From Psammoneis japonica (Eukaryota): 64,000 bases of DNA. This document shows positions 1-64,000 of this stretch, piece after piece. The position numbers and the translations under genes were made by a program. The stretch spans positions 372,001-436,000 of the forward strand of contig QPGO01000044.1 in the NCBI GenBank assembly GCA_008632985.1, written 5' to 3'. The notes under the pieces were generated by a model. That model worked only from the letters and a program-made list of their open reading frames with translations, was not told the origin of the DNA and ran no database searches. How positions within the stretch are numbered: position 1 is the first letter of the stretch; every line of letters starts with the position of its first letter.

Positions 1-1530
1 GGTTAATTCAGGAGTCAAAGAGGATGATGTCACTGCATTTCATGAGGCCACACCCCCAGTGCTGACTGTCACAATCATGAAAGAGTTGTCTCAAACATGT
101 TGAAGGCACAGAGGTCATCATCCTGCATGAGATCTCACACACCTTGCAAGCAAATGTGTCACAACAAGATTGTCCATTGAACACTCTTTGTTTGTGAACA
201 AACAACTTGCTTGTTTGTTTTCTTAAAATGATGTTGCCCTTGAACTTAAGCCAGTCAAATAAAAAAATTGGCCACACACACATTGTGATCAACCAACATG
301 TGAAACAAGAAATGGCTCACATTTTCTTTCAAACAATCACCTGTTGCATGAAGTCTGAACACAAACAACAACTCATTTCAATGCATTTGGCAGACTGTTG
401 TGTGTCAACTTCCCAGTCTTGGTGCTGTCTGATGGCAACACTTGATCATCACACAAACATGCTCCACCAGCGCATCTCATTGTGCCAGCACCTCTTTCAT
501 TTTCTGTTGCTGTCCCTGAACCCAAATGCTCCAAACCCAGGACTTTCCAAGGCATTGTCTTTTTTGCCCAGGACAAAATCAGCACAGCACAGTTCCCAAA
601 GATGTGCCATCATGCCATGCCACATGTTGTCAAGCGTGTCACCCATGCACCCATGAACAAGCTTTGTTGCCTCTTTGCTCTGTCAAAAACAGTCAAACAA
701 ATGCCACGCTGCAACACATCTGAAGATTGTCATGGCACCCCTTGCAACATTGGAGAATTTTGCCTGTTGGGGGGGCAGATTCTCATGATGATCCCATGCG
801 AACATGCAAGCCAGTTCTAGAGTGAATGGCATCTGCTGTGCTGCTCTCTCAGCAGACAGAGATCATGGGAAAATGCAAGTGGTTCAAGCAAAAGTTGAGG
901 CACAATGCAACACATGCATTGCCAAATTGCAGCCATTGATGACCATCATGAGGCGCAACCAGGTTTTCATCTGATGTCGCACATTTTCCCTGGCAAAGAC
1001 AAAAAGAAGTGGAGGCAGCACTGCTTGTGAAAAGCTGATCTCTCTGCTGACAAACCCAGTCTTTGCAAGAAGCTTTTGGATTTAGCAGACTGAGCTTCAT
1101 TTTGCATCTCCTCAGACACAGCTGGATTTTTCTTGACCTGATCAAGTGCATCTGGCATCTCTTGCAGCACATCTTGAGTGCATTGGGTGTCAACAACATG
1201 TTTCCAATCATTTTGTGATTTCTTGTCACTGCTGCTGCAGCTGTGGTTGCTCTGCTTTGTTTTAGAAACCATCATTTTGTGATGCTCTCTCATGTTGTGA
1301 CAAATGTCAATGTGGAAGCACCTCACACATGTTGTCCTTGCACTTAAAAATTCAAACGGGCAGGTGAGTGACAATCAAGAGATGTGCCCTTTTTGTCACA
1401 ATTGTGACATGTGTGAAGGTGCCACCACAGGCCACAACACAAGCAGCACTGATCATTTTAGTGTGTCACAAGCAGCAGTGATCAACAAGCAATTGATTGG
1501 CAATCAATTGACCATTTTTGTTGATTGTTG

Positions 1531-1692
1531 GAGGCAGGTTGAAAAAAATCTTGCTCTTGCATTTCCTGCTCACACAGCGGAACAAAAAAGCAACCCATCT
1601 GCTGCTGATTGGCTGTTGCCAATTGTTTGAGGCAGGTCAAAGAAAAAAGTCTTGCTCTTGCATTTCCTGCACACACAACAGAACAGAAAAAG
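1531..1692 (+). repeat. Imperfect direct repeat, about 60-bp core, about 100-bp period
   Basis: gaggcaggt..aaaaaa.tcttgctcttgcatttcctgc.cacaca occurs at about 1531 and about 1629. Confidence 0.8.
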
Positions 1693-2249
1693 TGGCCATT
1701 TTGTTGCTGTGGTTGATTTTCCACATGCAACTGGTTGGTGCTTGAGCAAATTTGTCATTGGCCCATGTGTGTGGTGACATCATCATGCTGTGGCTTCTGC
1801 GCATGAGGCAACAGCTACAACAACCATTTTGTGCATGCGCTCTGCAGCAATTCCCAAACAAAAACAATGACTGCATGCATGGCCACTCACTTCTGGGAGA
1901 ATGACAAGCCTGCTCTGCTTGGGGGCCCAATGAGATGCCATGCAGAGTGCAAGAAAAGAGAAAGCAAAATCTGTTTTGAAGGTGCTGCTGCACTTCCACC
2001 AGCAGCAGCCATCCAGAGCAGCTGGTGGCTGCAGTCAACAGCGGAGAAACAATGCATGTTGAGACTGCAGCACCAAGGATGCTGATCATTTTGCTTGCTG
2101 TCATCAGATTTTCTTTTTTTGCAGCTCTCCTCCTCTTGTGTCTAGAGAAGGAGAGTCTCTTGAGGTCTTCCTGGAGCTGCCCTCCAGCTTGAGAATCAGC
2201 ACACAAAAGGTCAACACAGTGGGTTTTGACAACAAAAAGAACACACAAG

Positions 2250-2830
2250 GCAAACAAGTTTGCTGCACAGCATGACATTGGAGTTGTGACTGCCTTTTCT
2301 GAAAACCACATGCTTGGAAACACATCCATGATTCACACCTTGGATTGTGGTCAACTGTGGGGGGCCACTTTTCACTTGTTTGTCATGAGAAAAACAAGAA
2401 AAAACAGCTCTGACTTCACAAAACAATTTTTTGGCAAAAATGGAAATGACACTTCTTGGTGCACATGTGATTGTGGTGAAGTCTAGAGCAGCTGTCCACT
2501 GCACTGTTGGAACTGCAAGTTGTTGGTGGCTTTTCATTGCATCACCAGAGCAAGTTCAAGAAGCAATTTGTTGCTGCAGTTCAAAGAAAATCTCAAGGTT
2601 TGGGCCAACAACATGATGTGGGATCAGGGCTGCACATTTGCGGGCTGGTGCACTGCTGCATTGAGCATGGGCACAAGGGTGCACATTGACATGTGCAAAC
2701 ACTTGAAATGATCTAGAATGGGTTTGTGGAACTTCACAAGATTGCAGCAACACACTTTCTCATTGACTGGACAACCACATTTTAGTCCACAAAGCATTGA
2801 TGCCATGGATCAACTGTGACACATGAGTCA
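2250..2830 (+). pseudogene. Hypermutated copy/paralog of the DUF1647-like gene at 7879
   Basis: Collinear with 8040-8620: KANKFAAQHDIGVVTAFSENHMLGNTSM vs KANKCTPQHDIGIVTAFSENHMLENISM; FKENLKVWANNMMWD vs FKENPTVWANNMMRD; multiple frameshifts. Confidence 0.92.
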
Positions 2831-5666
2831 TGAGTCTGGTTCACAGATGATGCTTCCTGTCACCCAGCACATCATCTTCTGGAAGAAATGTCCATTGAAT
2901 CTCTTGGCAACAGCAACTGGAGTGATCTTCATGGCCATCAGGCTGGAATGCCTCTTCTGGTCAACCATGAGAACTTCTCACAATTTGCATCTTTAGAGCA
3001 TCTCTTTGTTCCCACAGCTGTCATCATCCTCTGCACTGCACCTTTGCAACTTCAAAAGAATTCTCTGCTCTCCCTGTTTGCCATGAATTGTTGTGTCACA
3101 AGTGGCTGTGACCCCAATTTGAGCACTGTGGGTGTCAACTTGAAATGAGTTGCTGCTGCTCAGTCATCTCCTTGCAGATGGCATCCAATCCACATTGCAG
3201 TCCAGTGGCAATCTTCTGTGTCACAGCTCTGCAGCCAATCTTCCATGTTCACTCTTCATCCAGAAACATGCCTGATTCTTGGACAACTGCTCCTGCTGAC
3301 CCTCTTGCCAGAATGGACCTGAGCTGCCACCCAACAGCTCACTGCTGCATTTGTGGCTGTCAGCACACCCAACACTCCTCCAATGCTTCCAACGCCCATC
3401 ATGGCAGAAAGCATTCTCCCATGGTGTCCATCTTGGTGGCTCTCTCTTTTGAACAACCAGAACAAGTAGAAGGACACTTGCATCTGCCACTTTGTGCCTC
3501 AGTGTTGCCATCTGAAGGCCATCAACTGCTCCATTGAGCAATCCCTTCATGACCAACAACATGCCTCACCAACTGCTTCCCATTTGACCATCTGCAATGG
3601 TCATTTTAGATGACCCAAGATGTTCAGGATGGTCTCTTGTTCAGGTGGTGACTCAAACTGATCACTGCCATGGCTGCCACCTTGGGCTGCTGATCACTGC
3701 CATGACTGCTGTTTCTGACCCCATGCTGTCAAGTGCGCTGTGCCTCTCATCATGGCAGTCTCCTTTCAAGCACTTTTTTCATGCTCAGCTTGGGACAGGA
3801 TGGAGACAGTCCTGCCCACACACTTGTTTTCTCCAGAGGCACATTCTCCAATGATGTTGCTTTGCTTTGGGAAAGCACAACAAGAGGCTTCATTTCTGGC
3901 TCTTGGCACAAAATGCGGGAGCACAACCAATCCCTTCATGAGGAGAGCATGATCATCCTCCTGGATTTCCTGTGTTTCATTGCAGAACATCTCTCCCAGC
4001 ACAATGACAGCCATGCCAACACTGGGCATCACAAAACAGATCTGTCATTTGGATGAGTGCCTGCAATCAAGCATGAGTGCAGAAACAAGCACCACCATGA
4101 TGATGATTAAGAAGCACCATGGAGAGCAGCAAACTTTGCACCAGATGCAAGAGGGCCGGCACCAAAATTTTGAGCACATTCTTGGGACTTGCTGGAATGT
4201 TTGGCTGAGTGTTTTCCCACAAATGACCATCAGCACTGAAGTGAGTGCTCACAAATGCACAACTCAAGAGGCACTGGAACATTGTGTTGTTTGCAGCACA
4301 AGCCACACATGATCAGTGTAGAAAAAGAAAAGAGCACAAAAAAGCTTGAGCCCAATTTACAGTGCCGTTGCACCTTTGCCCAGCAACACCGGCACTGGCT
4401 GGCCCACACTTCCAGCACACCCTGCAAGGGGGGTGTGGCAGAAGCTCATGCAAGAATTGGCTGGTCACAGTGCCACCTTGCAGCAACACCTGCCCACCAA
4501 AGACAACTGATGAGAACAAAATGGCGTGCAGATGAGGCCTTTGCTTTCTTTTGAATTGGGCGCACATGTGACCCACAAAACAGCAGCAAAGGAGGACGGT
4601 CATGTTTGGAATGGGGAGCATGGACTAAAGTCTCTCCTGCTTTTGTCACAATGGAAACCACAAAATGCTTTTGGACTGTGTTTGGATTAGAAACAAGTGA
4701 AAGGAGGATTTGGAACTTGTTCAGGGTCTTGCCAAGGCTGAAGAATGCAAGTGCTTTGGCATTGCTGAAAAATGCTTGCAATCTAATGACTTTGCTGAGG
4801 CTGCTGCTGTGAACACAAAGCTCTTTCATCACACCAAAGCATGGCAGGAGGAAGTGTTCACAAGAGTTTGGTGATGCAAATTGCCAAGCACTGGCAAAGG
4901 GGAAACAAGTGGGGGACTTTCAGTGCATGCACCAGGCACATGAATTCATGCTCCCACCAAGAAAACTGAACACAAGTTAAAAAAAACAGGGGGGGAGAAC
5001 ATCATCAAGTCTGTTGACAAATTGTTGGCACAACCTCACAAGTGTTGAGACCCAGATCATGTTCCCAAACACTCTGTTTTCTGTGTTGAACTGTGATGCC
5101 TGCCAACTTCCATCCATGCTCTGAGATCTTGGGTGTTTCTTTTTTGCTTTGGCTGAGGGCATCATGTGGCATCTGTCTTCTGTCATGCAGCAGAAGATGA
5201 TGTGATGGCCTGCTGGTGGCACTGTTCATCACAGCTGGTCATTGGTGGCAGACTGACAGACAGACTGTGGACTGACCTCCTGCCTGCTGGCTCTGAACCA
5301 CTGCAAGCTCAACTCGCCAACAAAGAATGACAACCACCAACTCCTTCTGCCATGGTGCACAGCTTGCTGGCTTGCCACTTGCTGTCCAGAGACAACAACA
5401 CAGACACACAAGCTGTCATTGTCAACACAGCTCTTGGTGTGATTTTTGGGATGCTTGTGTTGACTCAAAAAGGGAAAGGGGGTGCAGGTGCACCAGAGTG
5501 CCACTGTGCTGTGACAAAGATGCAAACAGGAGAAACTGTCAGCAGCAGCTGCTGCTTGTCCCCACATGCACTGCCTTGCTCAAAAGCCTTGATGCTGTGT
5601 GAGTGATGGAGAAAAAAAGAGAGTGAGAGAAGATCACAAGGCAAAAGAGCAGCACAATTTGATCCC

Positions 5667-5669
<3 letters not shown>

Positions 5670-5711
<42 letters not shown>
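5670..5711. repeat. (GA)n microsatellite
   Basis: Uninterrupted ga run of about 40 bp. Confidence 0.97.
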
Positions 5712-5718
<7 letters not shown>

Positions 5719-5961
5719 TTGATTGACTGTTCACAAAGCACAAGCTCTGTGCACTTGCAGTCATTGAAAGGTGCCACTTGCCTTCAATCAAATGACACAA
5801 ATCAATTTTTTACAAGAGCAGACACTGAAAGAAGTGCAGATGAAGGATCCAAAACAGTGCATGATGGCCACTTTCTTGTGGTTGATCACATCTGCCAACC
5901 ACTCACAAGAACATGTGACTGAGTGCCCCCCCCCCCGGCATTCAGTGTTGTGCATGTGCAA

Positions 5962-6108
5962 AAATCTGTTTGCACAGTGCTCCATGCTGACATGCCACAA
6001 ATGTGATGGTTGGTGACAATTGTGCATGACGACATGTGCTGTGCACAAATCTGTTTGCACAGTGCTCCATGCTGACATGCCACAAATGTGACAGTGGATG
6101 ACAATTGT
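5962..6108 (+). repeat. Direct repeat, 85-bp period
   Basis: aaatctgtttgcacagtgctccatgctgacatgccacaaatgtga is identical at 5962 and 6047, with further similarity to tgacaattgtg. Confidence 0.9.
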
Positions 6109-7603
6109 GACATTGAAGGTGCAACAGAAAAGCACCAGAGAGGTGCCTGGGATCCAGCGAGTGTGCTGCAAATTGTGCACAAGCTGAACGACTTTCCCGT
6201 GTTGCCCAGTGAGAGACACAGCCAGTTGCTGATAGACTCACATTGAAGTTTGAACTTGTGTCTTGACTTTCTGCCAACAAGTGTTTCTTTTGCACTCAAG
6301 CACACTTGTGCTGGGGCTGCACACTCTAAAACTTTAAAATTGTGACTGTTGAAAAGGGTTGAGGTTGGTCACACATGTGTTGAAGTGGCAGTTCTTGAAC
6401 CAAGTCTAGGACAGCAGCAGCGCCAGAAGAGTTGGCATCATTCTGGCTCCAAACAATGGTGCAAAAGAAGGACCCAAGTCATCCTTGGCACTGGTGGTGT
6501 GCTGGCAGCACCAGAGATCACACCACCATGGAGGAGGCGCCAGTGCACACCTCAAAACTGCCCTTCCACCCATCCTTTGGCTGAGGTTGGGTTTGAGTGG
6601 AGCACCTGCCAGTGCCCGTGCATGCAGAGCCACCACCTCAGGATGAAGCAATGAGCGGCATTTGCACCGGCGGTGCACCAAACAATGAACATGGCAAGCA
6701 ATGTCCATTTGCACCATGACCATGCCCCATGGCTGTGACCCCTGATGATGAGCTCCAGCTTGGGGTGGCATCTCACAGCAATGGCAGGGCCATGTGAGGA
6801 CACCCTGCATTTTTTGGTGTTTTGGTGAAAAATTTGGGTGCATTTCTGCGTAACTTTGGGGATCACTTTTGTGCCAGTTTGTGGCACAAAATTGTTGGGC
6901 CATCCACTGAACAATTTTTAACATTTTCATGCTCTGCTGCATTCTCTGACATTTGCAGAGAGAGTGCAGCCATGCACCATGCAAATTTTCAACATGAAAA
7001 GGTGCAGCACCTCTGGTGGCACACAAGCTGTGGAGCTTTCACACAAATTTCCACAAGCAAAGTGTTGTCACACCGCCAAGAAGTCCTGCCCAGAGCTGGA
7101 ACAAATGCAACAATGGGGGGTGGGGGAGAGAGAGGCATCCCTCAGCTCTGGAGGTGTGTGCCGCACAAAAGTCATGCACACTTCAATGTGCAGTCTTCTT
7201 CTTTCACAAAATTGTTTCACACAACAGCATGCCTCCCATTTTGCAAAGCCAACACAGATGGAGGAGCCACATTTCAGCCATTTCTCTGACAACACAGTAA
7301 AAAGTGGGGGCTGCATTTTTCAAAGTCTGAAGAGTGCAGCTCTGAGCATGCCAAAGGTGGCACACTTCAAGCACGGAAATCATTGACTGCAAAATTAACT
7401 CGTTTTGACAGCAGTCGTTGGCTGTTCATCACCCAGCAACAGCTTTGCTGCAGAGCTTGCACAGGTCCCTTTTCAACTTGCCAACCAAGGGCAATTGCAA
7501 TGGAGAAAAAAAAAAACAGCAGAAGCAAAGATGCAACGGCACGGCAGACGGCAGCCTCAGCAAGCCTCGCTCGCTCTTCCTGAGCCTGTGCTTCCTGCGG
7601 CGA

Positions 7604-7604
7604 G

Positions 7605-7636
<32 letters not shown>
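7604..7636. repeat. (TGCG)n microsatellite at the edge of block 1
   Basis: gtgcgtgcgtgcg... about 8 units. Confidence 0.95.
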
Positions 7637-7878
7637 GCGGTATGGTGCGTTGGGACGACGCTTCGACCGTTGTGTGCCAGATAATGCGTTGATATGAGGA
7701 TGTGTTATTCATGCAATATACGATATAAAAAGTATGTTCACATCACTGTACTCCATGCATGAAGACATTTTTAAAAACCGAACGGTCGGTTGGGGAATTT
7801 CAAATTACTTCGTCCCCACTGTTGAAAAAATCATGATGTCAAAGACAATGTTAGGCCCTAATTAATTGCGCACCAAAG

Positions 7879-8872
7879 ATGATGGTCAATTTGCTCGCTG
7901 TTGTCAGCTTTTCATGTGTACTTCTCCTCCTCTTTACGGTTATTTGGTCTGACCGAAACCTGCCCCCAGCTGAAGAATTCGCACAAACGAAAACACCAAA
8001 GGTCATCACAATGGATTTTCAACAGCGAGAAGAATGCAAGGCAAACAAGTGCACTCCGCAGCACGATATTGGAATCGTGACTGCCTTTTCGGAAAACCAC
8101 ATGCTCGAAAACATATCCATGCTTCGCACCTTGATTGCGGTCAATTACACTGGCCCGCTTTTCATTTACGTCATGAGACAACCGGGAGAAGACAATTCTG
8201 CCTTCATAAAAGAATTCTCGACAAAAATAGAAACGACAACTCTCGATGCACACGTGATAGATTATGAAGTCTCGAGTGATTATCTATTCTACTGTTGGAA
8301 ACCGCAAGTAATTGGTGACTTTTTATTGCATCACCAGAACGAGTTCAAGACGTACATGTGGACCGATTCGTCGACGCGATTCAAAGAAAATCCCACCGTT
8401 TGGGCCAACAACATGATGCGGGATCACGTTGCGTTTGCGGGTCGTACTGCTCCATTGGGTATGGGCGAAGGGACACACATTGACACGTACACGTACTTGA
8501 AACAGTCTCGAATGGACTTTGTGGAATACCGTGAGATTAAAGCGACTCACTTTCTCATGAATCTGGGTGACCACGATTTGGTCCATGAAGTCTTGATGCC
8601 ATGGATCGACTGTGCCACGCGGGCGTGTCCGGACCTGCATGGCTCCGCCGGGATCGTCCAAAGAGATTATGAAAGGCAAGGTCATTCGTGGACCACCCTC
8701 CACCACATACATTGCACACCGACAGGATCAGTCCGCTCTGAGTGTTTTAGTGTATGCCTTAAAAATACAGCGGTCCGGAAATGTAAAATTGCACAATAAC
8801 CGAGACTACATTAGAGTTGACATTGTCAGGCACGCCGATGAAGGGGTAACAACGTTGTATGATCTAAGCTAG
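7879..8872 (+). CDS. DUF1647-like type II membrane protein (putative glycosyltransferase-like); frameshift near 8630
   Basis: N-terminal TM anchor; IVTAFSENH, YCWKPQVI, MWTDSSTRF, PWIDCA; continues in the 8612-8872 frame as CMAPPGS...HRQDQSALSVL, motifs I recognise from DUF1647. Confidence 0.7.
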
Positions 8873-14454: not shown

Positions 14455-15059
14455 GGTGTACACAAGAACAGAATTCGTTTATTGGCACAGCCGCAATCCG
14501 CAATGAGAAGGAAGAAGGAAAGATCTTGTTGGTTGGTCGATCGTCGCGTCGGCGTGTCTTTTTCTGCCGGTCGCGAAGAGGCACACAACCAGATTTTGCG
14601 GGAAGTTGGTATTAGAATAATCATTCTTGAAGATTAAAAATATATGTGCAGCGATTGGTGCATTCTCAGAGTCCTACATACAAGTGACGTATGTGGCAAG
14701 GTACGAAGCTTTCCATATTCACCTAGGGGCCCTACGGTAACACGTCGCGCCGCTCTCGTGATGATTTTGATGATTCGCGAATTCGCGATCGTTTGGACCA
14801 AAAAGTATCTTCTGGTCTCTTGCTGAGACCCAACTACACTACTTCTACAACAAGCAACAAGGTGAGTTCTTTCTTCATCTTGCTTCTGAGCACCTGCATG
14901 GCAGGGACGGTGAACGGTGACGCTACCAGCTGGTCCTCGCTGGAGCCCATTCCTTTCGACAACGCTTGTCTAGAAAGGACAAGCCATCCTGATCTTCTCT
15001 TGTTTTGTTGTGTCGAAACTCTCCCACTCTCTTCTCGCCATGTTCTGGGGTGGCAACCT

Positions 15060-16900
15060 CCTGAACCTGTGGGGGAGGCACCGCTCTTAAGAAACGAGAG
15101 AGGGCGAGAGGACCGCCCTTGAAGAGCGACGATGAAGATGCCAAACAGCGCAAAAAGGAACACGCAGCAATTGAGAAACTAGAAGATGCTGGAGACTTCC
15201 TTGATTATTATCAAAGCAAAATCGAAGGTCATCTAAAAAAAATCGATGACTACCTAGGAGTGGAAAAAGGCCTTAAAGCTTGGCTCTTTGGAGAGAAATG
15301 CTTTTTTTTCAGGAAACAACGTATTCGAGATTGGGCAGAGACTATGGAACTGGCTGAGATTGCCGGAGATGCCAACTATCACGGCTACGACGAGGCTAGA
15401 AAGGTGGATACCGCTCGAATTGGCTGCCTTGTTTTTGTGAAACGGGTGTGTACCGTTGCGGAAAAAGATGCGGTGGATGAAGGAAGAGAAGTGTCCTACA
15501 AGGATTTTTTTGGTACCCAAGAGTTGCAGACGATTCTTGAGACGATTCTTCCAATGGACAAGGCCAACGCCTTGTTCAAAATGGAAAACGCACTCTGGTA
15601 CTCTTCGGGCTTCATTGGCGAGAAATCGAAGCTCACACAGGACAAACAATCTAATCAATTCATTGGCAAGAAGTCGAAGCTCAAGCAGGACAAGAAATCT
15701 AATCAAACTATTGAATTGAAGAATATCAAAAAGTGGAGAGAGATACGGAATAAGTACCCCAGCAAAAAACCGGAGAAAGATGGAGCAATTAGCGGCAAAG
15801 TCTTCCGTTTGGTCTTCCATCCCACCGAAGGGTTCGACCACCTCAAGTGCTGGCTTCGACCCACCGTGCCTCCGTACTTCCCAGATAACGACCTGCACTG
15901 GCGAAAATTGGCTAGATTTTTTCTGGCGAGATTTGCTGCATTGGATTTCATCCGTCATCACTGTCCTATGGCTACTCGCACTCCTCCTTCTTCCAGCAAT
16001 CATGGACTTAATCTGCAAACTTGGCGTTAAGGATAGTGCGTCCGCTCGATCCCCGACCCTTTCTTCTACAATGTCAGAAGCGTCAAGCTCTACCACAGAT
16101 GATCAAGATAGAAGATGTGGCCATGGGTGTACGTCACCATGTGCCTGTCTGGAAGCAATCAAGACCGGTGTACTCCTGTTCTCGCTGGCACTAGTTCGAC
16201 TGAATTGGATGATCCGAAAAGCCTTTCTTCACTTTTCCGGTGGTCCAGTCGTAATGCTCGGTGTAGCATTTCTGTTGGCGAGGGTTATCGACTCTTGCTC
16301 CAGAGTCGAGTTCAAGGCATTGTCCTTTTCGTTTTTTCAATTATGTGGTGTATTCTTTCTCATACGCAACACACAATTTGTTATCATTGACCCTTCCGAC
16401 CTCTGTTCCTATCTCGCAAGCATCTCCAGGGCCGTTTTTAGAGATATCTTAAAGCAAGATTTTTCTGATGTTGCATATGCAAGTTGCGGCGCCTTGCTGA
16501 CATTGATCATTCTATACTTCACGGGAAATTTAAAAAGGGGAGGACGATTGGTTGAAGATCCGGATGGTTGTAGCATGGGTTTCGTTTACGGGGGCAGACT
16601 GGCCATCTTTTGTCCCACCAACGGTGCAAGATCTGTTTGCTATATTAATCTTTCTTTTTTGGACGGCATGCTTGATATACGCAGGATGGTGGTTCATTCG
16701 TGACCTCCTTCTTGAGGTATGGGACTTCTATCGCTTTCCACAGCCGAAGGTGCCCGTAGTTACGGGAAAAAAGGACCAGTAGCCAGTAGGCGGATTGGAG
16801 CCGCAGAGCTCAACATCAAGCGTTTTGCAACAATAATTAGTGTAAAATTCATCCTTTATAGTTTATGGTTAGCATCTTTCGATGACATGACACTCTTCAC
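15060..16900 (+). pseudogene. Partial paralog 1 of the C-terminal half of the TIR-MYND gene (lacks TIR and MYND); frameshifted
   Basis: ORFs 15119-16030, 15780-16703 and 16552-16782 align consecutively to 36530-38275; carries a private 48-bp tandem duplication at 15611-15706. Confidence 0.85.
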
Positions 16901-17039
16901 ATGAGTGGCTTGTTGCACGCCTCTGCGGTTCTTTGCTTTCCCCCCCCGCACAGCAACTTGTGTGTGGTCTTTGGTATTTTGCACAACCTCAAGAACCTAT
17001 TGAGGACAACGTTTCTGCCTTCCGGCGACGACGTTGCCA

Positions 17040-42877: not shown

Positions 42878-43059
42878 GGTTGATTTTGTTTTGTTGCCCT
42901 GGATGGTGGATGTTATCCATAGTATTCAGTCATGTATGCTCTCAAGAATCATTTTATGAATGCTTGAAAAAAGATTACCAGTAAAATCATAATAGCATAT
43001 TAATTTATCTCAAGAATGAAGATCAATAATTAAAATTAACAGCAGCAAATGCCGCCTGT

Positions 43060-50796: not shown

Positions 50797-51169
50797 TTGG
50801 CTCCACGCGAGCGTTGATTAAAGCTTGCCTCTGTCTTAGTATTTTGCTGTGTCTGCTTTGTAATAAGAGTCGAGAGTACAATAGAGTCAGTCTCCTCCTG
50901 CCAAAAATTTTGTGATGGTTGGAGGGAGTCGCGCATGCGTTGAAAATCACTCGCGATCAACCGTTGATGACGAGCATGACACTGAATGCAAAAAATCAAA
51001 AATCAATCCTATTTTACCGGAAAACGTGTTTTTTCAAAATTTGAATCTTGCAGCCAAATCAATGACACATTATAAAACGATAGTCGCGTCCAACGGATGT
51101 ATATAACCTTCAGATACAGATAGAGCTATTCGTAATAAATGCTTTGACCAATGAATAAAAATCCTGACT

Positions 51170-54100
51170 TCTCCATCCGACATGTGCCATGCGCAACGGA
51201 AATCCCGGCGGAACATTTTTTTGATTTTTTGTCGTTTGTCGTTTGTGACCAGGGCAGCGAGACATAAAACCAATGCGCCATGATTCGTGAAGAACCACGG
51301 GCTGTGACCGCCAGTGGGGGGCCCACCCGAGCTCTGGCAACTTGATTCCATTTGTCTGTTTGGAGCTGCACAAAAATGGCTTGAGTGGGAGGAATTTGAG
51401 CACAACGAGTCAAAAGAGTCCTCATGTCACACAAGCCAAATTCAGCCAACAATGCACTTGCATGCCCTGCTGCCACGCAAATGCTGCAGCTTGGCTGTGC
51501 TCCAAGACACGTTGCTTTGTTGTTGAAAAAGCGGGGAGCTTTTGCAGTGCTGCAAAAATCAGAGCCTCTGAGTGAACCAGTGGCGCACACCTGCAATTTT
51601 GCCACACCTTTTGCATCATGCACCCATTTTGAAGCATGCCCTCGCTTGTCAATTTTCTGCAAAAGAGCTGCTTCTCATGGCTCACAAGCTGGCTCTGGCT
51701 GTGTTTTTGGAGTTTGTTGCAAGTTTGTTGCTGCTCTGCTTTCTGGGTCTTTCTTTTGTTCACATTTTTCAGTGTTGGCAGGTGCGCACCAAGTGCTGCG
51801 CATCTTTTGGAAAATGTGCCCCGGCACAAAAAAGCGGTTTTGTGCGCCATTCTGTGCATTTCCAGGTGTTGCTCCAATGACTTTGACAAATGTGGTGGCA
51901 GGAGTTTGTGAAAAGACATTCCCCCCTGTCTCATGTCTGTGCTTGGCTGCACTCTGCAGACATCAAAGACTGCACACTCTGCAAGCACGCCAAAGATTGC
52001 AGCTGCACAAAAAATGTCAAAAGCTGTCAAATTAAAGTGGCACAATGGTTGCACCCATGAACCAGCTCAAACTGGGCCCAAAAGACATGTGCACATGAGC
52101 TCTGCACTGAGATGTCAAAAAATGAACAAATCTGCAAGTTCTTGCTGCCCTGGAGCTGGTGGGCTTCTTGTCTTGAGAGCCAACACTGACAAAAAAATTT
52201 CCAGAGAAGCAGCAGCAGCTTTTGATGCCTTCAACCTTTTTTCTTCTCTTTTTGCCCACACATGATGTGCCTCTTCTGGTGGTTTCCACACTCCAAAAGT
52301 TTGATCTTGGTTGGTGCTGCTTGAGCTCTCTCTGCACCATCATTTGCTCCAAGTTTCTTGCCATGTGTGCTGAGAAGCAAGTTTTCAACTGAGTTTGCTT
52401 CTTTTTTTTTAAACTTTGGCACACATCATGTCAACTTGCTGCAATCTTGTGGTCCATGCCATGCACATTTTAAAGCCTGTCATTTGACCACCATCTTTTC
52501 TTGTGCAAGTTGCAAATCTGTCAAACTGTGCTCTGGTGAGCTGCCAAGTGAAGCACGGATGATCACCTCAGCAGCACTTTGCATCAAGCACAAGTTGTGC
52601 ACACTCTCCATGCACATGAAGGACAGCAACAAAAGAGGCCTGGATGAGCTGGTCTGTCATTGCCAAGAGCACAGAGAAACAAACATTTTTTTAGATCATC
52701 AGCAAAGTCTTTGCTGCAGCCGCACTTGCGCACATCTCCTTTGTCTGTCAGGTGGTGATGGCTGGGCAATTCCCATGGCAAAGCATGGGAGACAATGACG
52801 GCACTGACTCCAAAAAACAAAAGCACATTTTGTTGGTCTTTTGCACTCCTCTGCTGCGATGGTGTGGGGCTTGATCCCTTGGAGGTGAAAGGCTTGCTCT
52901 TTTGGCATTTGTGGGCTGCAATCTGTTGTGGTCATTGTGGCCATCATGAACAACACATGAAAAGCACCACAGTGAGAGGCCTCAATTGTGTGGTCAAATT
53001 CAGAAATGGTGCAAAAGCCTTCTCTGTGCCAACAATTTTTCTGTTGAACAAATGGCTCAAAGACAGCCAGACGAAGCACTTTTGGACATTTGAGCAAAAA
53101 GAGCCTGTTCCCCAAACTGCTCTCCCCGTCAAAAAATGGAGCATTTCAAAAAATGATGCACAGTTGTGTGAATCACAAATTTGTGCATCTCGTTGCATTT
53201 TCAACCTCATTTCACCCAGAGCTGGGGGGCAAGGGAGATTGCACGCTGAAGTCTGGGAGCAATGCATGGTTGGACAGACCGCCGACAATTGCAGGGATTT
53301 TTGAGTTTGCATCATCTTGTGCAGTCACCACACACCACACACATGCAAAACTCTTGTGAAGTGTTGCACACACTGACACAAAGCCTTGCTCCAACACCTG
53401 CAGTGGTGGAGCAGCCAGCTGGTGGAGTGGAAAGTGTGCTCTTCCATGCTCCCATGGTGTCTCTCCACTGCGCTGTTGTCGTTGTTGATGCTGCGCTGCT
53501 GGTGTGCAACTCAAAATTGAATCAGCAAGTGAGCCACTGTTGGTTTGGTGAGGTTGCTCAGTCACTTGCTCATGCTGGCTTGCACAAGCAATGTCCAGAG
53601 CTCAGCTGCTCTGCACCACTTGTGCGAGTGATTTGCGCGTGGAGTTCAGTGTGGAGGCGACATGTGAGTGCATGCCACAGCTTTGGCAGGGCTGCTCTTT
53701 TTTGACATGATTACATCCAAAGAGTGCCATGGTGCCCTGTGCTTCACCATGTTGTTTTGTCATCAAAAGAACAGATTTCAGACCATTTTTGCCCAGGGAT
53801 TGGCAACCATGACTCAGAACTCCCCAAGATGTCGGCAAGAACCCAAAAGTTTTTCTGTGCAGAAAATGCACCAATGGTGTGATCGTCTTCCACTTGCCAC
53901 ACTCCCAGACTTCAGTGGAATTTTCAGCCCCATGTTTCTGACCAACTTGCCAACAAGAACAACAAGGGCAGTGATCTTGGGCTTTGTGGTGCCTCTTGAC
54001 TGAGTCAAAGTCAGGTGGGGGCTCTTGTGTCACCCCTGACATTGTCTCTCCACTTCTGACTGCAATGCATTGATCTGTCCCAAGTTGTGCATGTCAGGAA

Positions 54101-54410
54101 ACTGCAACAAACAAGCAGGTTTTCTGCATCACTTGTCAAGAAGCAACGCCAGGTTTGCGGATTGAAAAAACCGTTTGCAGCTTGGCAGCCTTGCTGGGGG
54201 GCACCAGCTCCACACACAACAATTGACCAACAAATGCTGCTGAAAAAGAATGCATTTGTTGCCACAGGCATGGGCCTGTGATGGCCATGCCAAGCACCGA
54301 CACCCAGACAATGGGATCAACTCTCTTGCGTGCATGGCTGCTCCCGCGAGACAAGCACTCGCAGAACTTCGGCTCAAATTCCATGGACGGATGGACAGAC
54401 AATTTTGAGC
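51170..54410. other. Hypermutated block 5
   Basis: Same signature; CpG-retaining margins at both ends. Confidence 0.88.
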
Positions 54411-54679
54411 GAGTTATCTATCGTACACAACATGTATCGCGCGCTCGTACGCTGGACAGAAGACCCACACGTTGGATGTTTATTGCGTTCTAAGAACCGG
54501 TTAAAGTTATTAAAATGAATTATTGATCATCAGTGACAACTATGATACTACATTCCATTCAACGGTCACAATTTGGAGAAGAAATCAAGTTGAAAGTGTG
54601 AAACAAAATGAAGGAAGTGCACAAATAAGAAGCTTTTAGAGCTTGTTTAGAGGGCCTAAAACGCATTTCACTCAACGCA

Positions 54680-56746: not shown

Positions 56747-56859
56747 GGGTGCGTTTTTCAGCTTGTAGGCGTGCAGCGTGTGACTCTCCATTAGCTCTAG
56801 ATGTTGTCAAGTGAGGCGATGATGATCTTGCCTTTGACCAAGTTCTCGAATCCAAATTC

Positions 56860-58180
56860 ACAAAGAGGAGTGTCAATGACTTTAATGTCACACTTCTTGT
56901 CTGGCCAGTTTTCCATTGGAGGTCTCAATGGCATTGTTGAGCCGGACATCTGATGTTGTCTAGATTTTCACTGCCCATGCAAAGCTGTCACTGAACTGCA
57001 TTTGTTGGGTTTGCAGTCATCACCAACAAGCGTCAACCTGTGACCAGCCTCCGAAATCCTTTAAAAACCAGATTGCCATGGTGAAATGACCCTGGCAGCT
57101 GTGTGTCCTTGCACTTTTTTCTTTTGCTCACTTGGGCAGCAATGATGGCATTCCCATCATGGTCACAGGTGTGCAGACAACTGCAGCTGGACAAGTGCTA
57201 AAACCAAGAAAAACAAGCAATGGCAACTTTGTGGGGTCAGGTGAGGAAAGAGCTGGGCGGCACTCAAGAGAGACATTTCCGTTGGCAATTTTACATTTTT
57301 TCATTGTGCACCCCCCCCCCCCCCCCAGGCATGCAGCAATTTCATCTGAAGCTCTCCAGCATGAATGTTTGCTCAAGAAGGTGGAGCACCAAACTCTGCC
57401 ATCCAAGTCAGAAAGCTCTGGTGTGGCCCATGTGCTGCACAAAACAAAGGCTGTTTTTGTCAGCCAGATGGATGCATGTGACACGCAAGTTGCAGAAGAG
57501 CAATGAAGGCAGCTGCATGACACACATGACAGTGGCAAAAACAGCTGTCAAACAAAAGCTTTTGCGCACCTTTGCCAGTTGACAAAGGGAAGCAGAGGAT
57601 GCCAAGAAACGCCATGAAACAGCAGATGAAGATGCAGCAATGGCAAGTGCCTCACAATGCAACAGCAGCAATCACAAAAACACAGCACATCTTCCCTTCT
57701 TGAGCATTTCACAAAAGAGCTGTGTGGAGCAAAGTCAGAGAGAGCAGCTTTGCCGATGCCAAGAGGTTCTCTGGCTCACTCAAGCTTGTCATTCAGGGTG
57801 CTGCTTTGCTCTTCTTTTGATGCAACCAGCACCAACAGCAGAGGCAGCTCACATCATCTTGCCATGCGCTGCTCGCTCCAATGGCAAGCTGAGGCTTTTG
57901 CCTTGTTTGTGTGTGCCAACATCAAATTCGAGGCATGCTCTTGTTGTTTTGGCTCTTGCTGACATCACAAAGCCCTCATTTCTGACAAAATTGGTCCAAA
58001 AAGTTGGTCACAAAGGAACACACAAGACTCTGCAAAGAGACCTCTTTGCCTTTTCAGTGGGGCTCAGTGCCATGCATGTTGTGGGTGCCGTTTCTTCCTT
58101 TCTGACACTCGACACAAAGACGCTTTTGGAGCATCCTCATCACGGTCTCCGGGTCATTTGTGGGCATTGTTCAATGACCA
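56860..58180. other. Hypermutated block 6
   Basis: Same signature between two intact genes. Confidence 0.85.
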
Positions 58181-58324
58181 TTCGGACTGGCATTATGACC
58201 GAAGAAAGTGGCGTTTCCGTCCGCAAAAACTCTGGCATACCATCATGTGGACTAACTTCGGTTGCCATGATGTGATTTGCGGAGCGTCGAAAGCGACATC
58301 GTTTCTTTATCGACAGAACAAACT

Positions 58325-59239
58325 ATGGGTCGTTCGAAATTCTCCTTCTCACATGTCTCGATCACCATTATCCTAGGATCACTAGTTCTATTCTTCCAGC
58401 GAGTTCCTGTCGTCACTTTCACAAATCATAGTGGGATTGTTGATGAGAAAGCACCAGGTTTTGCTTATCCTCCAGTCCTATATGCGCATATCCACATGGC
58501 CAAGACGGCAGGTACCAACATCGTTGGCGAGCTTTCGTTGCATTACGAACGAATCTGCGGCAACAAGGGATATTCCTACGATGCATACCAAACGAACGAA
58601 AGAATGAAGGAGCATCAATCGAAAACAAACAAAACTACTCTTGTGTATCAAGCAAATGACATAGTTCACAAACTTTCTAACAGATACAACAGAGGAAAGC
58701 TTCCACACGATGTCATGACGGAAATCGGCTTTGAGGATTGTGACTATGTCAGCATGGAGAACCGCTGGTCTGTTTGGCCTAAGTACTTTTCTGACTGGCC
58801 CATCCCTGTGGAGCTGCACGTTAGTTGTCGTGACCCCCTAGAACACTTCTTGTCTCTGTTGAATCATAGAGGCCGCCAATTTCATTGCGAGGCAGGTGCT
58901 GACGGGATACTGCGCCAAATAAGGGGTCACAATCCGTACGCCAGCAGATTCTCCACGAAATTGCTCGAGTACGAGAATTTCAGCGTCAAATGCTTTGACT
59001 TTCGAAAAACTTCAAACTATGTGACTTATATGGGAGAACGACTACAGCGCAAGCGATTCAATGCGGACTATGTTCTTCGCGATTCGAACAAATCCCGAAA
59101 CAAATCTGAAGAATGCTTGTGGGACTATCCCGACTTGCAAGACAGGGTTGTTGATTACCTCCTCGAACGCTATGCCTACTACAGGTTTTGCAGCGAATGC
59201 CTTGGTTCAAAAGATGACTTGTTCTTTCACGATAGGTGA
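58325..59239 (+). CDS. Golgi-type sulfotransferase-like protein
   Basis: TM anchor; YAHIHMAKTAGT and SCRDPLEHFLS motifs. Confidence 0.8.
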   Translation: MGRSKFSFSHVSITIILGSLVLFFQRVPVVTFTNHSGIVDEKAPGFAYPPVLYAHIHMAKTAGTNIVGELSLHYERICGNKGYSYDAYQTNERMKEHQSKTNKTTLVYQANDIVHKLSNRYNRGKLPHDVMTEIGFEDCDYVSMENRWSVWPKYFSDWPIPVELHVSCRDPLEHFLSLLNHRGRQFHCEAGADGILRQIRGHNPYASRFSTKLLEYENFSVKCFDFRKTSNYVTYMGERLQRKRFNADYVLRDSNKSRNKSEECLWDYPDLQDRVVDYLLERYAYYRFCSECLGSKDDLFFHDR

Positions 59240-61312: not shown

Positions 61313-63478
61313 CTACATGTCTAAAAAAAGTCTGGGGGCGACCCGCCTCTTCGATTTGCGAAGATTCTTCTCTCCTGATTTCGCTGGCTTCTTTCGAACA
61401 GCTTTTTCTTGTGTACTAGTAGGAGACACCACCCACAATGGATCCCACTTTGGTCTTGACGACCTTTTGGGCGGCTGTTCCTTGAGCAGTTGTTGATGTC
61501 GTGCACGAAGCTGCCCTATCGTCATGTCTGGAAGAACTTTGGAGTGAATCAATCGCCAAGATTCCGGAGAGGTTCCGTAACTTTCAACAGCACGAAGCAA
61601 TGTCATGTCCGCTTGACGCTTCTCCAGTTCGGCATCGGTTGTACCGTTCTTTAAGGGAGACTCCTGTTCAAACAGGCGCTTCCCAGCCGTGGAGCGGTGA
61701 CTCTTCCTTACTGGCACAGCGATGCTTGTAACATTCTCCTTGACAGCACCGCTACTACGTTTTGGGGTATTGGAACGAGGACGCTTCCGAAGAGTCATTT
61801 CGGTAGTCTGACTGGGACGCTCTTTTCTCTTGACAGCAACGGTGTGGCTTGCAGTTCTTGCTGTCGCTGCTGGGGCAAGTTTCTTCTTTTTTGTCCGGAC
61901 GGAAAATGTCCGCTTGTACATGGCATCAAAGTTGAAAGTCATATTGTCGTTTAGAAGTGGAGCAATAGCCACATCCAATCGATAGGCTTCGCGTATGCCG
62001 CTTGAATATGCGCCATGGATTGTGCTTGGGTGATAGGGAGTCGTGTGCTCTCCGGCAAACAACAATACGGGTCGTCTCGTAAAAGGGCAAAGGATGGGCT
62101 CGGAACACTCCACCAAATCCTGAGCATCAGCACCGGGCGGCATGTACACAAAGGCACCCCTCGAATGCGGCTCCATGCCCCATCTAGTGACTGCGTAATC
62201 CAACGGAGTCGGTGGGACCTGTCCCGTGGCTTGGTGCAAAACTCGCAAACAATCCTCCACAATCTCATCATTAGTCCATTCCTGTACTTCCTTGGCAAAG
62301 TCTCCTCCAAACCAAAACACAAGCACCGGCTGTGGACGATTGTGATTCACCATCAAATGGAAGCGTTCCGATGAAACCACGCCAAGGAAATCGTCGTTTT
62401 GCCAAAAGGCGTGTGAAAACAAGAGTGCGCACTTGTTGAACAAACCGCATCCCAGCTTTTTGATGGACTCTTTCTTTGAAAGAGGAAGAGGAGGGACAAA
62501 GTCGACGCCCCCGTGAGCTGCATCCAGTTTGAGTACTCCCAAGGGCAACGTACAAACGACGGAATCCGCTTGCAGTGTCGTGCCGTCCGAAAGAGTCACA
62601 TGTACAACAGTCCGTGGTTCTTGCTGCTTTGCAATAGCCTCATAGTACTCGTTGGAAGTTTCAGAGATGGTAAATGCCTTGGCTGCAACCCCTTTGTTTG
62701 CACGTGAGGATCTTCTTACACTTTGAGTTGTGCTGCCATTCTGTTGCGGTGTTTCTTCAACTTTGCGCCGTGATTTGTCATTTAGAGCCACGTTTTCTAT
62801 GCGTACCACCTGGGCGTTTTCTTGAATCGTCAATCCGCTTTTTAATTTTTCCATAACAGTAGACCAGGTGGCCTGATGCAAGGATACATGTTCACCGTCA
62901 TAGCCATATGGCTCATCCTCATTCCAGTCATGGCCCAACTTGTGAAAGGAAGCTCCACAGGAAACTTCTAGGTTTTGCTGGTGCCAAGAGAACAGTGCTC
63001 GGTCTTCAGGAGACATTTTGTTTAAATGCGGCTCTGCCACCTCATCGAATATCGTTCCAAAATTATCATTCTTTGTACCTTCCACAGCAAAGCTTTCGTC
63101 TAATACTTTGTTAAATAGCTCTGAAACCGTTTGATCTTGAGCCGGATCGATTTGCAATCCGTCTTCATCAAACAGCAGCGTCGATGAAACGGGACGAGTC
63201 TCGATTCCCATATGACGACACAAATCATAAATCGGATTTTCGTCAATGCCATGAATTAAAGCACCACCTAAATCAATTTCGGTGCTAGTGTCGGTTGTGG
63301 AAGAACGCAGCGCCTCACCCTTGAGTCGTCCACCCACCCGATTTCTCGCTTCCAAAACAAGCACATTGTGACGTCGCTGACGTAATTCACGGGCACAAGC
63401 CAAACCAGAAACGCCAGCGCCAATTACAATTGTACGTGGTGGGGTTGTGTCGCCATCGTTGTTTGATGTAGTTGCCAT
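61313..63478 (-). CDS. Flavin-dependent amine oxidase of the LSD1/KDM1-polyamine oxidase family with a C-terminal Myb/SANT-like segment
   Basis: IVIGAGVSGLACAR..LEARNRVGGR FAD site; DLGGALIHGIDENP; GCGLFNKCAL; TRWGMEPHSRGAF; FAGEHT..STIHGAYSSGIREA. Confidence 0.9.
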   Translation of the reverse strand: MATTSNNDGDTTPPRTIVIGAGVSGLACARELRQRRHNVLVLEARNRVGGRLKGEALRSSTTDTSTEIDLGGALIHGIDENPIYDLCRHMGIETRPVSSTLLFDEDGLQIDPAQDQTVSELFNKVLDESFAVEGTKNDNFGTIFDEVAEPHLNKMSPEDRALFSWHQQNLEVSCGASFHKLGHDWNEDEPYGYDGEHVSLHQATWSTVMEKLKSGLTIQENAQVVRIENVALNDKSRRKVEETPQQNGSTTQSVRRSSRANKGVAAKAFTISETSNEYYEAIAKQQEPRTVVHVTLSDGTTLQADSVVCTLPLGVLKLDAAHGGVDFVPPLPLSKKESIKKLGCGLFNKCALLFSHAFWQNDDFLGVVSSERFHLMVNHNRPQPVLVFWFGGDFAKEVQEWTNDEIVEDCLRVLHQATGQVPPTPLDYAVTRWGMEPHSRGAFVYMPPGADAQDLVECSEPILCPFTRRPVLLFAGEHTTPYHPSTIHGAYSSGIREAYRLDVAIAPLLNDNMTFNFDAMYKRTFSVRTKKKKLAPAATARTASHTVAVKRKERPSQTTEMTLRKRPRSNTPKRSSGAVKENVTSIAVPVRKSHRSTAGKRLFEQESPLKNGTTDAELEKRQADMTLLRAVESYGTSPESWRLIHSKVLPDMTIGQLRARHQQLLKEQPPKRSSRPKWDPLWVVSPTSTQEKAVRKKPAKSGEKNLRKSKRRVAPRLFLDM

Positions 63479-63699
63479 GTCGATATGCTGTTGTTACAAA
63501 GACTTTACAAATAGAATATAGCGTTTAATTTTTAGAGTGTCGCTCATCGCGTCATCGCATCAGCTGCCTGAGTTGGACGCGTGGATTTTGGTTTTCTGTG
63601 CTTTCGCCAATTCGTCGCCTTTTTATTTGAACATGTTCAGCGACGTAGGGTTTTAATATGTATATAACCTCCTACATGCACGTTAAAGTATTATTTTTT

Positions 63700-64000
63700 G
63701 GATGTCTCAGTCGTCACTCTGCCATTTTCTCGCACTTAGCCGTGTTGACCATTTGCCGATGCCGCTGAGCACCCCCCCAAACACACGTGATTGTGTCCAA
63801 GTCATGCCTTGACAGACATGCTTTTTTTCAATGCAGTGTCCATGGCCACAGATTAAAAAATCTGGTGCCGTTGGATGACACAGCTGTGGGAGCCTGCACC
63901 CCATGATCTTGAGTTTTGGGGCTGCTGCTTGGGCATCTTTTCATCTCTCTGCGCACCCACCTTCTTTTGGTGCACTGCCATTTTAGCTTCAATGACAAGC
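63700..64000. other. Start of hypermutated block 7 (runs off the window)
   Basis: TAY-free, TG/CA-rich after an AT-rich spacer. Confidence 0.7.

Follow-up and report, generated by a model that had tools for sequence, protein, structure and literature searches.

Analysis of a 64,000-nt stretch of the genome of the diatom Psammoneis japonica (GenBank assembly GCA_008632985.1, contig QPGO01000044.1, positions 372,001 to 436,000 of the forward strand; hereafter the window, with positions counted from its first base) revealed seven sharply bounded blocks from which the dinucleotide TA has vanished almost entirely and CG to a large extent, both having been turned into TG or CA. For these blocks we document the direction of the change, its dinucleotide and context specificity, its regional confinement, its strand symmetry and the independent mutation of repeat copies. 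Our conclusion, which we hold to be probable, is that two separate transition processes have acted in situ, namely the decay of methylated CpG and a faster, TpA-specific A:T>G:C hypermutation of silenced repeat DNA. In kind, the latter matches an event described for the chlorarachniophyte Bigelowiella natans, where hypermutation of integrated viral DNA is restricted to TpA (Mettrop et al., bioRxiv 10.64898/2026.01.13.699255, 2026).

Loss of TA and CG from bounded blocks

The seven blocks, delimited in an initial sequence-only reading of the window, comprise 28,063 bp and contain 84 TA (observed/expected ratio (O/E) 0.04), 366 CG (0.23), 3216 CA (1.81) and 3210 TG (1.86), whereas the remaining 35,937 bp hold 1475 TA (O/E 0.57) and 1983 CG (1.02), with O/E values of 1.14 for CA and 1.17 for TG. 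At a resolution of 500 bp the two states did not overlap at all: 98 intervals within blocks gave TA O/E values of 0–0.20 and CA/TG values of 1.59–2.23, compared to 0.30–1.03 and 0.90–1.46 for the 132 intervals outside, so that the lower TA content claimed for the blocks is evident throughout. Altogether, 44% of the window bears the TA-depletion signature. The G+C content amounts to ~0.47–0.49 inside blocks and outside alike, as expected if losses of G:C pairs at CG are offset by gains at TA, and an ordinary composition profile therefore misses the blocks.

Domain edges were determined by two-state segmentation, run separately for TA and for CG (Table 1). The resulting domains end sharply, within tens of bases, and deviate from the coordinates of the sequence-only reading by tens to a few hundred bases. 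The seventh block, which is cut by the end of the window, falls below the length for the TA model, yet was called by the CG model. That reading had described a loss of nearly all TAT, TAC, ATA and GTA and of most CG. The TA O/E is uniform, at 0.028–0.063 over six blocks, while the CG loss, large but short of near-complete, proved uneven, with O/E values between 0.12 and 0.53. In block 4, TA lies at the floor but CG has fallen by only about half; this domain may be younger than the others or carry less methylation, and could be useful to order both processes.

Open reading frames (ORFs) of at least 90 aa within blocks (n = 146) encode 0.06% Tyr, 6.6% Cys and 5.5% His, compared to 2.27%, 3.1% and 3.45% outside, in line with their earlier characterization as almost Tyr-free and rich in Cys and His. 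As TAA and TAG are gone, long chance ORFs are expected in every frame, and these spurious Tyr-free frames are not evidence for genes.

Direction and rate of the change

Two blocks contain hypermutated pseudo-copies of genes that are intact elsewhere in the window, one derived from an ORF adjoining block 1 and one from an AIM24-family gene (Table 1). The direction of change was polarised by using the intact gene as ancestral proxy and the pseudo-copy as derived state, with pairs of gene paralogues serving as control. Not one of the 31 ancestral TA was kept in the two block copies (18 became CA and 6 TG), while the control pairs kept 47 of 65; for CG, 3 of 61 were kept (22 became TG and 24 CA), compared to 64 of 89 in the control. 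Taken individually, the copy in block 1 kept 0/18 TA and 1/39 CG, and the AIM24 copy in block 3 kept 0/13 TA and 2/22 CG. Both copies are far closer to their parents when compared in a purine/pyrimidine alphabet (90% versus 74% nucleotide identity for the block 1 copy, 86–93% versus ~70–76% for AIM24), which means that most of the differences are transitions.

Transitions per site in the block pairs reached 0.425 at CG sites (51/120) and 0.426 at TA sites (26/61), compared to 0.073 and 0.053 in the control, whereas transversions per site were alike (0.092, 0.115 (TA) and 0.061 in block pairs; 0.085, 0.099 (TA) and 0.052 in the control). At all other sites, 92 transitions were found among 830 positions, 34 of which belong to 17 double flips between TG and CA; once these are set aside, the remaining 58/830 are near the control value of 84/1397, and the transition excess is thus limited to the two palindromic pyrimidine-purine steps. 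In the block pairs, 17 of 155 sites carry such a double flip, compared to 5 of 550 in controls, a pattern expected if TA or CG that arise anew are converted again and again. Polarisation of the pseudo-copies and the differences between repeat copies described below agree with each other and with the earlier proposal of two transition processes, CG>TG/CA and TA>TG/CA, in bounded non-genic blocks.

Sequence context

The ratio of trinucleotide frequencies between blocks and non-block sequence revealed a graded dependence on the neighbouring base. For TA, the values were 0.01 for TAT, 0.03 for TAC, 0.11 for TAG and 0.16 for TAA; for CG, they were 0.09 for TCG, 0.18 for ACG, 0.25 for CCG and 0.32 for GCG. 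The controls AAA (1.15), TCA (1.36), TCT (1.01) and TCC (0.78) indicate that a general loss of A after A or of C after T is absent. Among the 84 TA that survive in the blocks, 54 stand in a YTAR context (Y, pyrimidine; R, purine), 30 in a mixed context and none in RTAY, compared to 257, 746 and 470 in non-block sequence, which confirms the TAY preference and the YTAR survivors already noted in the sequence-only reading. Scaled for length, survival relative to non-block sequence amounts to 0% for RTAY, ~5% where one strand only reads TAY and ~27% for YTAR. These classes fit independent hits on each strand, each requiring 5'-T-A-Y-3'. Hexamers of the type TYTARA (TCTAGA, TTTAAA etc.) account for 21 of 47 surviving YTAR sites compared to 34 of 232 outside (p 1.3e-5), and their enrichment shows that the second flanking base matters too.

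Mutation in place, on both strands and by location

The numbers of TG and CA are approximately equal in every block, and the local TG/CA skew does not exceed that of genes, a symmetry that speaks against RNA or cDNA having been edited on one strand. Information on copy number was obtained by aligning Logan contigs of a public sequencing run (X1), assembled from 31-letter words, to positions 14501–34500, which include blocks 2 and 3. In these two blocks, 4023 contigs match at 90–99% identity and the summed depth reaches ~95–3400, compared to ~30–80 in genes. Diverged repeat families, each present in multiple copies, form a mosaic in both blocks. Among the 26 listed in-block differences from other genomic copies, 15 are interconversions of CG, TA, TG and CA, with three CA/TG double changes; 331 further differences between copies, beyond those listed, lie over the same 20 kb. 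Since the copies differ at precisely these steps, copies of one family must have mutated independently after separating.

Repetition itself does not appear to be what attracts the change. The AIM24 pseudo-copy is single-copy by depth (37 in the bin 31843–32509), yet fully mutated, and its parent gene at a distance of 7 kb is untouched. Likewise, three TIR-family paralogues with 78–82% identity to each other are unmutated and normal in TA and CG content, so that moderate duplication alone holds no attraction for the mutation. The mutated single-copy fragment, together with its intact parent and the intact paralogues, led to the conclusion that the trigger is the location of the DNA and not its duplication.

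Several observations bear on whether one or two processes are at work. Besides the different evenness of the TA and CG losses among blocks, the edges of the TA and CG domains lie 50–460 bp apart, and several 300-bp stretches at the edges show a TA O/E of 0–0.07 along with a CG O/E of 0.68–1.05. The flank rules are unlike as well, with a 3' pyrimidine favoured for A in TA and a 5' order of T>A>C>G for C in CG. Furthermore, (CA+TG)/TA is 82.6 (77 TA compared to 6360, i.e. 1.2%), while (CA+TG)/CG is 17.1. If the blocks are at equilibrium, TA would be removed ~80 times and CG ~17 times faster than it is restored by back-mutation, the former figure being an indirect lower bound. The CG ratio is ordinary for methylated DNA, whereas the TA ratio needs a dedicated process. 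We therefore favour two processes within one shared chromatin domain and treat a single agent of dual specificity as a minority rival.

An unmutated element between blocks 2 and 3

A Stowaway-like miniature inverted-repeat transposable element (MITE), flanked by TA, occupies part of the gap that separates these two blocks (Table 1). It occurs once in the window, and the summed X1 depth of ~92,000 in the bin containing it suggests thousands of copies in the genome. The MITE and its right flank contain 32 TA and 30 CG in 508 bp. To its right, positions 31235–31420 resemble the left flank when compared in the purine/pyrimidine alphabet (score 186 versus a shuffle maximum of 155). Within this region, the unmutated stretch 31285–31395 is homologous to the mutated stretch 30767–30871, and the two include five consecutive transitions (TTATGTGG versus TTGCACAG). 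The idea that the mutated DNA to the left of the MITE represents an old MITE copy was dropped, as the body scored 131 and 146 compared to shuffle maxima of 148 and 157. The intact state of the MITE may reflect a very recent arrival, an exemption of short elements or of these surroundings, or a process that has stopped, and we do not choose between these. A recent arrival is compatible with the rates in B. natans, given that a TA loss of 96% is estimated to take ~10^5 generations from the figures in the accessible text of the preprint (10.64898/2026.01.13.699255).

Proposed mechanism

Based on the above, both processes would operate on the double-stranded DNA of the chromosome, within repeat-rich domains that are silenced, and would end tens to hundreds of bases short of the neighbouring genes. 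In the first process, methylated CpG would decay to TpG/CpA until an O/E of ~0.2 is reached, as in methylated genomes, to an extent that varies from block to block. The second would be a much faster A:T>G:C change confined to TpA, with a strong preference for TAY (equivalent to RTA on the other strand) and a floor at ~4% of expectation. In combination, every palindromic pyrimidine-purine step would be driven to CA or TG, and Tyr codons, TAA and TAG stops and the coding content of the repeats would be lost. We infer that the domains are heterochromatin with CG methylation and that the second process is chronic and not a single burst; genome defence is a plausible function.

Regarding the agent of the second process, an adenine deaminase acting on DNA (A to inosine, read as G) is the simplest candidate for a transition-only, T-A-specific change, and if the rest of the scheme holds, we regard it as a serious possibility that stays slightly short of probable. 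A modification of T, for example oxidation to a miscoding base, would strike the same base pair and is indistinguishable from deamination of A by sequence. Error-prone patch repair of the Pol-eta type, put forward as a further candidate in the sequence-only reading, fits poorly and was set aside. Pol eta mutates A after A as well as after T (WA motif; W, A or T) and causes many transversions. In the blocks, AA is not depleted (O/E 1.23 versus 1.17, in agreement with the AAA ratio given above), ancestral AA was kept in 42/54 and 30/46 cases in the two block pairs compared to 102/130 in the control, and there is no transversion excess at TA.

Several points weigh against this reading or narrow it. 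That the domains are silenced and methylated and that the process is ongoing is what we infer rather than observe. The ancestral states derive from two paralogue pairs with ~1,045 aligned bases in total, and the repeat status covers 14501–34500, i.e. blocks 2 and 3. No Pfam family above cut-off was found in the 276 block ORFs (146 of at least 90 aa and 130 of 60–89 aa), which yielded chance hits below threshold only, and the longest of them (292 aa) is without homologue at E ≤ 0.01. The prediction that the flanks reveal which base pair of TA changed was half borne out, with RTAR sites giving 6 CA to 1 TG as predicted and YTAY sites 3 CA to 2 TG, contrary to it, on too few sites for a decision. 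Run X1, for which no library type is recorded, probably stems from the source sample of the assembly, so that it excludes errors of the assembler or polisher but not every property of that DNA preparation. Lastly, the very-high-copy MITE and ~150 bp of its flank are unmutated amid mutated DNA, and a chronic, domain-wide process must accordingly be slower than the age of the MITE insertion, or be excluded from this site.

Alternative explanations

One rival is a single agent for both changes, either a deaminase with a 5'-T preference that attacks A in TpA and C or 5-methylcytosine (5mC) in CpG, or a TET/JBP-type 5-methylpyrimidine oxidase that oxidises T in TpA and 5mC in CpG to miscoding products (T>C and 5mC>T). 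T and 5mC are both 5-methylpyrimidines, and 5-formyluracil miscodes as C. Both targets are palindromic pyrimidine-purine steps that end as CA/TG, their domains coincide within 50–460 bp, and the most depleted CG context, TCG, shares the 5' T that TA requires; the Discussion of the preprint moreover refers to ADAT2 enzymes for which activity on A as well as on C of DNA is claimed (10.64898/2026.01.13.699255). We nevertheless consider a single agent decidedly unlikely, as the common TA floor contrasts with the variable CG loss, edge stretches devoid of TA still carry CG, the flank rules differ, and the strong depletion of ACG, CCG and GCG means that the C>T change is not confined to TC, while a CG O/E of ~0.2 is explicable by ordinary 5mC decay alone. 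Another rival holds that one or more bursts have passed and that the blocks are fossils into which the MITE was inserted later. The evidence presented here is indeed a fossil record rather than present-day mutation, and the unmutated MITE with its neighbouring ~150 bp would be readily accommodated. Still, we regard an extinct process as unlikely, because TA amounts to only 1.2% of CA+TG and thus leaves room for little ordinary C>T change since, because the TG/CA flips and the runs of consecutive transitions in old copies fit better with repeated cycles of re-conversion, and because blocks of very different CG decay share one TA floor. The process in B. natans, according to the accessible text of the preprint, is active, though episodic (10.64898/2026.01.13.699255).

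Editing away from the chromosome during the copying of retroelements, by ADAR-like enzymes on RNA and APOBEC-like enzymes on cDNA, with block edges as insertion junctions, would suit the repeat nature of blocks 2 and 3 and the 5' U favoured by ADAR-type enzymes (Discussion of 10.64898/2026.01.13.699255). Such editing marks one strand, whereas TG and CA are symmetric in total and per block; it does not account for mutated host gene fragments, one of them single-copy, nor for CA/TG double changes between copies, which imply mutation after insertion. The C>T change is confined to CG and does not extend to TC or CC, TAG is among the least depleted contexts although ADAR favours a 3' G, and no viral, transposon or reverse-transcriptase domain was found above the Pfam cut-off in the 276 block ORFs. 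We judge this scenario highly improbable. The same holds for a foreign or viral origin of the blocks, with an odd composition that came by inheritance or selection and did not arise by mutation in this genome. CpG and UpA are under-represented in many RNA viruses according to the accessible text of PMC3829696, and the targets in B. natans are viral inserts; against this, the host-gene pseudo-copies in the blocks are changed relative to intact parents, copies of the same family differ at precisely the affected steps, viral domains are missing as stated, and the TA O/E of 0.04 is far below 0.45, the lowest value for a giant-virus insert in the accessible text of the preprint (10.64898/2026.01.13.699255).

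Lastly, we considered whether modified bases might have produced an artefact of sequencing, base-calling or polishing. The blocks are repeats, where polishing with short reads is weakest or impossible. Modified bases can mislead some base-callers. However, three X1 contigs with a depth of ~30–34 reproduce block sequence with 0 differences at 27402–27802 (401 bases), 27788–28186 (399 bases) and 31220–32831 (1612 bases), the last one crossing the left edge of block 3, and of the words sampled from block 2, 60% are present in this run. Contigs of this depth and accuracy, assembled from 31-letter words, derive from accurate reads, and they speak for the blocks, bearing in mind the probable common source sample. 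Symmetric miscalls affecting the two strands equally should leave a mixture in which TA and CG are still present instead of nearly absent, and the transversions and indels that separate the pseudo-copies from their parents are as frequent as in the control, as would be the case for old and genuinely diverged DNA. Long-read base-calling or polishing error is thus very unlikely to be the cause of the blocks, and we regard it as even less credible than off-chromosome editing or a foreign origin. Hence, we retain two in-situ processes, methyl-CpG decay and TpA-specific hypermutation, as the explanation that best covers the observations.

Other features of the window

The genes between the blocks are normal and comprise a TIR and zf-MYND gene with two partial paralogues, the AIM24 gene, a sulfotransferase-like gene, an amine oxidase gene and several family-less ORFs (Table 1). 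A protein search with the amine oxidase returned no close relative in the database, and its best named relatives come from the pennate diatoms Nitzschia, Mayamaea, Pseudo-nitzschia, Fistulifera, Cylindrotheca, Phaeodactylum, Fragilariopsis and Seminavis. A search of the whole window with Rfam gave 0 matches. A (GTGC)8 microsatellite (7604–7636) sits exactly on the right edge of block 1, which also includes an (AG)21 run (5670–5712), and the sole ambiguous base of the window is a single N at 27361 in block 2. On the plus strand, an open frame of 230 codons (57583–58275) extends across the right edge of block 6 and adjoins an ORF at 58271–59239. A second run (X2) of the same sample, not used as evidence, covered gene parts only over 14842–19408, at a very uneven depth (10–492) that would suit a transcriptome, and almost nothing in the blocks.

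Table 1 Blocks, genes and elements of the window. Positions of blocks 1–6 are TA-depleted domains from segmentation.
Feature	Position	Strand	CG-depleted domain	TA O/E	CG O/E	Remarks
Block 1	3–7633		9–7534	0.063	0.124	contains pseudo-copy of neighbouring gene
Pseudo-copy in block 1	2201–2828	+				hypermutated copy of the gene at 7855–8799; aligned to 7993–8624
Intact ORF, 314 aa	7855–8799	+				no Pfam family; TA/CG use normal; ancestral proxy for 2201–2828
TIR partial paralogue	15067–16891					
TIR partial paralogue	17044–18288					
Block 2	19520–30839		19980–30721	0.030	0.241	mosaic of repeat families
Stowaway-like MITE, 361 bp	30873–31233					exact 11-nt terminal inverted repeats CTAGGTGGGAC; TA-flanked; between blocks 2 and 3
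Block 3	31400–34086		31293–34213	0.034	0.245	contains mutated AIM24 fragment
Partial AIM24 pseudo-copy	31742–32186	-				hypermutated; aligned to 38834–39319; in block 3
TIR-domain + zf-MYND protein gene	34421–38491	+				two partial paralogues (see above)
Intact AIM24-family gene	38883–39767	-				Pfam PF01987, E 1.9e-68; ancestral proxy for block 3 pseudo-copy
Block 4	43131–44637		42867–44383	0.040	0.530	TA at floor, CG half depleted
Block 5	51162–54414		51311–54325	0.028	0.293	
Block 6	56802–58193		56852–58088	0.053	0.248	
Amine-oxidase gene	61313–63493	-				best named relatives in pennate diatoms, identity ≤45%
Block 7 (start; cut by window end)	63700–64000		63765–63996			301 bp: 3 TA, 8 CG, 34 TG, 30 CA

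Occurrence elsewhere and implications

To our knowledge, the 2026 preprint on a single rhizarian alga was the first to describe that A:T pairs of nuclear DNA can be the target of hypermutation. The present finding is real and not an artefact, but as the TpA process has been described in another lineage of the SAR supergroup (Stramenopiles, Alveolata and Rhizaria), it is not categorically new. The process as such is no longer undescribed, while the statement of the sequence-only reading that no description in diatoms was known to it still stands: in the full-text literature, a coverage that leaves out subscription journals, hypermutation directed at TpA was not found to be reported for diatoms or any other stramenopile. 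New as far as we could find are the diatom case, its saturation, the action on ordinary repeats and host fragments, the pairing with CpG decay and the TAY/TYTARA rule. A scan of 42 metagenome loci (288 kb) surrounding relatives of the amine oxidase gene revealed one weaker TA- and CG-poor island and none in the other 41, although such contigs are gene-rich and repeat-poor, so that the scan says little either way. This island, at ~7000–7850 of a microbial-mat metagenome contig (L010) and beside a diatom-like amine-oxidase gene, contains 10 TA, 16 CG, 87 TG and 82 CA, and its surviving TA are mostly YTAR, with RTAY making up 1 of 10. Another organism may thus bear the same signature, but the island serves as a lead rather than as evidence of spread.

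Rather than being the curiosity of one strain, the process may occur widely across the SAR supergroup, and it would act on ordinary repeats and on anything located in a silenced domain, host gene fragments included, rather than on viral inserts alone. We tentatively suggest, while considering it on balance somewhat unlikely, that diatoms and chlorarachniophytes share an old, chromatin-guided defence in which a nuclear enzyme rewrites A:T to G:C at TpA on silenced double-stranded DNA, in the diatom side by side with methyl-CpG decay. If true, invading or repeated DNA would irreversibly lose Tyr codons, TATA-like and other TA signals and the TA target sites of transposons at constant G+C. Should the agent be a natural adenine deaminase that attacks double-stranded DNA by a T-A-Y rule, no enzyme of this type would have preceded it, and this reversed counterpart of fungal repeat-induced point mutation (RIP) would be the second strategy of mutational genome defence in eukaryotes, evolved independently of the first. 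A natural enzyme making A>G changes in chromosomal DNA would also be of interest for base editing. The rule that TAY is hit and TYTARA spared, as well as the relation to CpG decay, has to be accounted for by any candidate enzyme, and the new features listed above render the mechanism more testable. On the practical side, the blocks, invisible to G+C profiles, also defeat homology-based annotation of repeats and genes, to which nothing in their 28 kb was recognisable.

Comparison with known systems

Methyl-CpG decay in transposable elements of vertebrates, plants and diatoms shares with the blocks the change of CG to TG/CA, the O/E of ~0.2 and the restriction to non-genic repeat DNA, but it is incapable of removing TpA, and the context order in the blocks is TCG > ACG > CCG > GCG. 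The methylation of CpG in diatom transposable elements by DNMT5, which the sequence-only reading had mentioned, is documented in the accessible text of PMC9998398, where CG methylation depends on DNMT5a and many diatoms are stated to carry RID-related DNMT4 genes of unknown function. For the blocks themselves, CG methylation is presumed by analogy with P. tricornutum. Fungal RIP, which relies on RID/DNMT4-type enzymes, is similar in being a regional, heritable, transition-only destruction of repeats with sharp edges and loss of coding content. However, it makes TpA from CpA and leaves AT-rich DNA, whereas here TpA is destroyed and CpA made at constant G+C, and it mutates both duplicates, whereas the gene copies at 7855–8799 and 38883–39767 are intact.

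Repeats of Pucciniomycotina/Microbotryum fungi reportedly undergo C>T hypermutation in a TCG context, for which we know of no A:T>G:C component; the strongest C>T change at TCG in repeats is shared, while in the blocks every NCG is affected and A:T>G:C is added. ADAR, ADAT and TadA enzymes resemble the second process in their A>G change with a 5' U/T requirement, though they act on RNA. The U-A-C target of TadA resembles the 3'-pyrimidine (TAY) rule found here, whereas ADAR and the editing in the sexual stage of fungi favour a 3' G, with TAG being among the least affected contexts in the blocks.

The closest parallel is B. natans. According to the accessible text of the preprint, two integrated viral regions in mutation-accumulation lines mutate at ~1000 times the genome rate, with 230 of 231 mutations in the viral inserts being A>G/T>C and all of these at TpA, and hypermutation occurs in some lines only (10.64898/2026.01.13.699255). 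The genome contains 124 TpA-poor, CpA+TpG-rich clusters, the TpA-poor coding sequences are enriched for reverse-transcriptase and DDE domains, and an ADAT2-like deaminase is proposed, while that text mentions neither diatoms nor CpG nor the words 'context', 'flanking' or 'trinucleotide' (10.64898/2026.01.13.699255). Both cases, which belong to the SAR supergroup, have in common the change of TpA to TpG/CpA, almost pure transitions, the involvement of both strands, the confinement to bounded regions, which in the diatom, too, may be non-host-like DNA, and the TpA-poor, CpA+TpG-rich clusters. They differ in that the diatom blocks are saturated (TA O/E 0.04 versus 0.45 in the insert from a nucleocytoplasmic large DNA virus, as given in the accessible text), cover 44% of the window, lie in high-copy repeats and embedded host-gene fragments without recognisable viral genes, and are co-extensive with CpG decay and marked by a TAY > TAR rule. 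New mutations were watched directly in B. natans, and the diatom contributes the fossil record.

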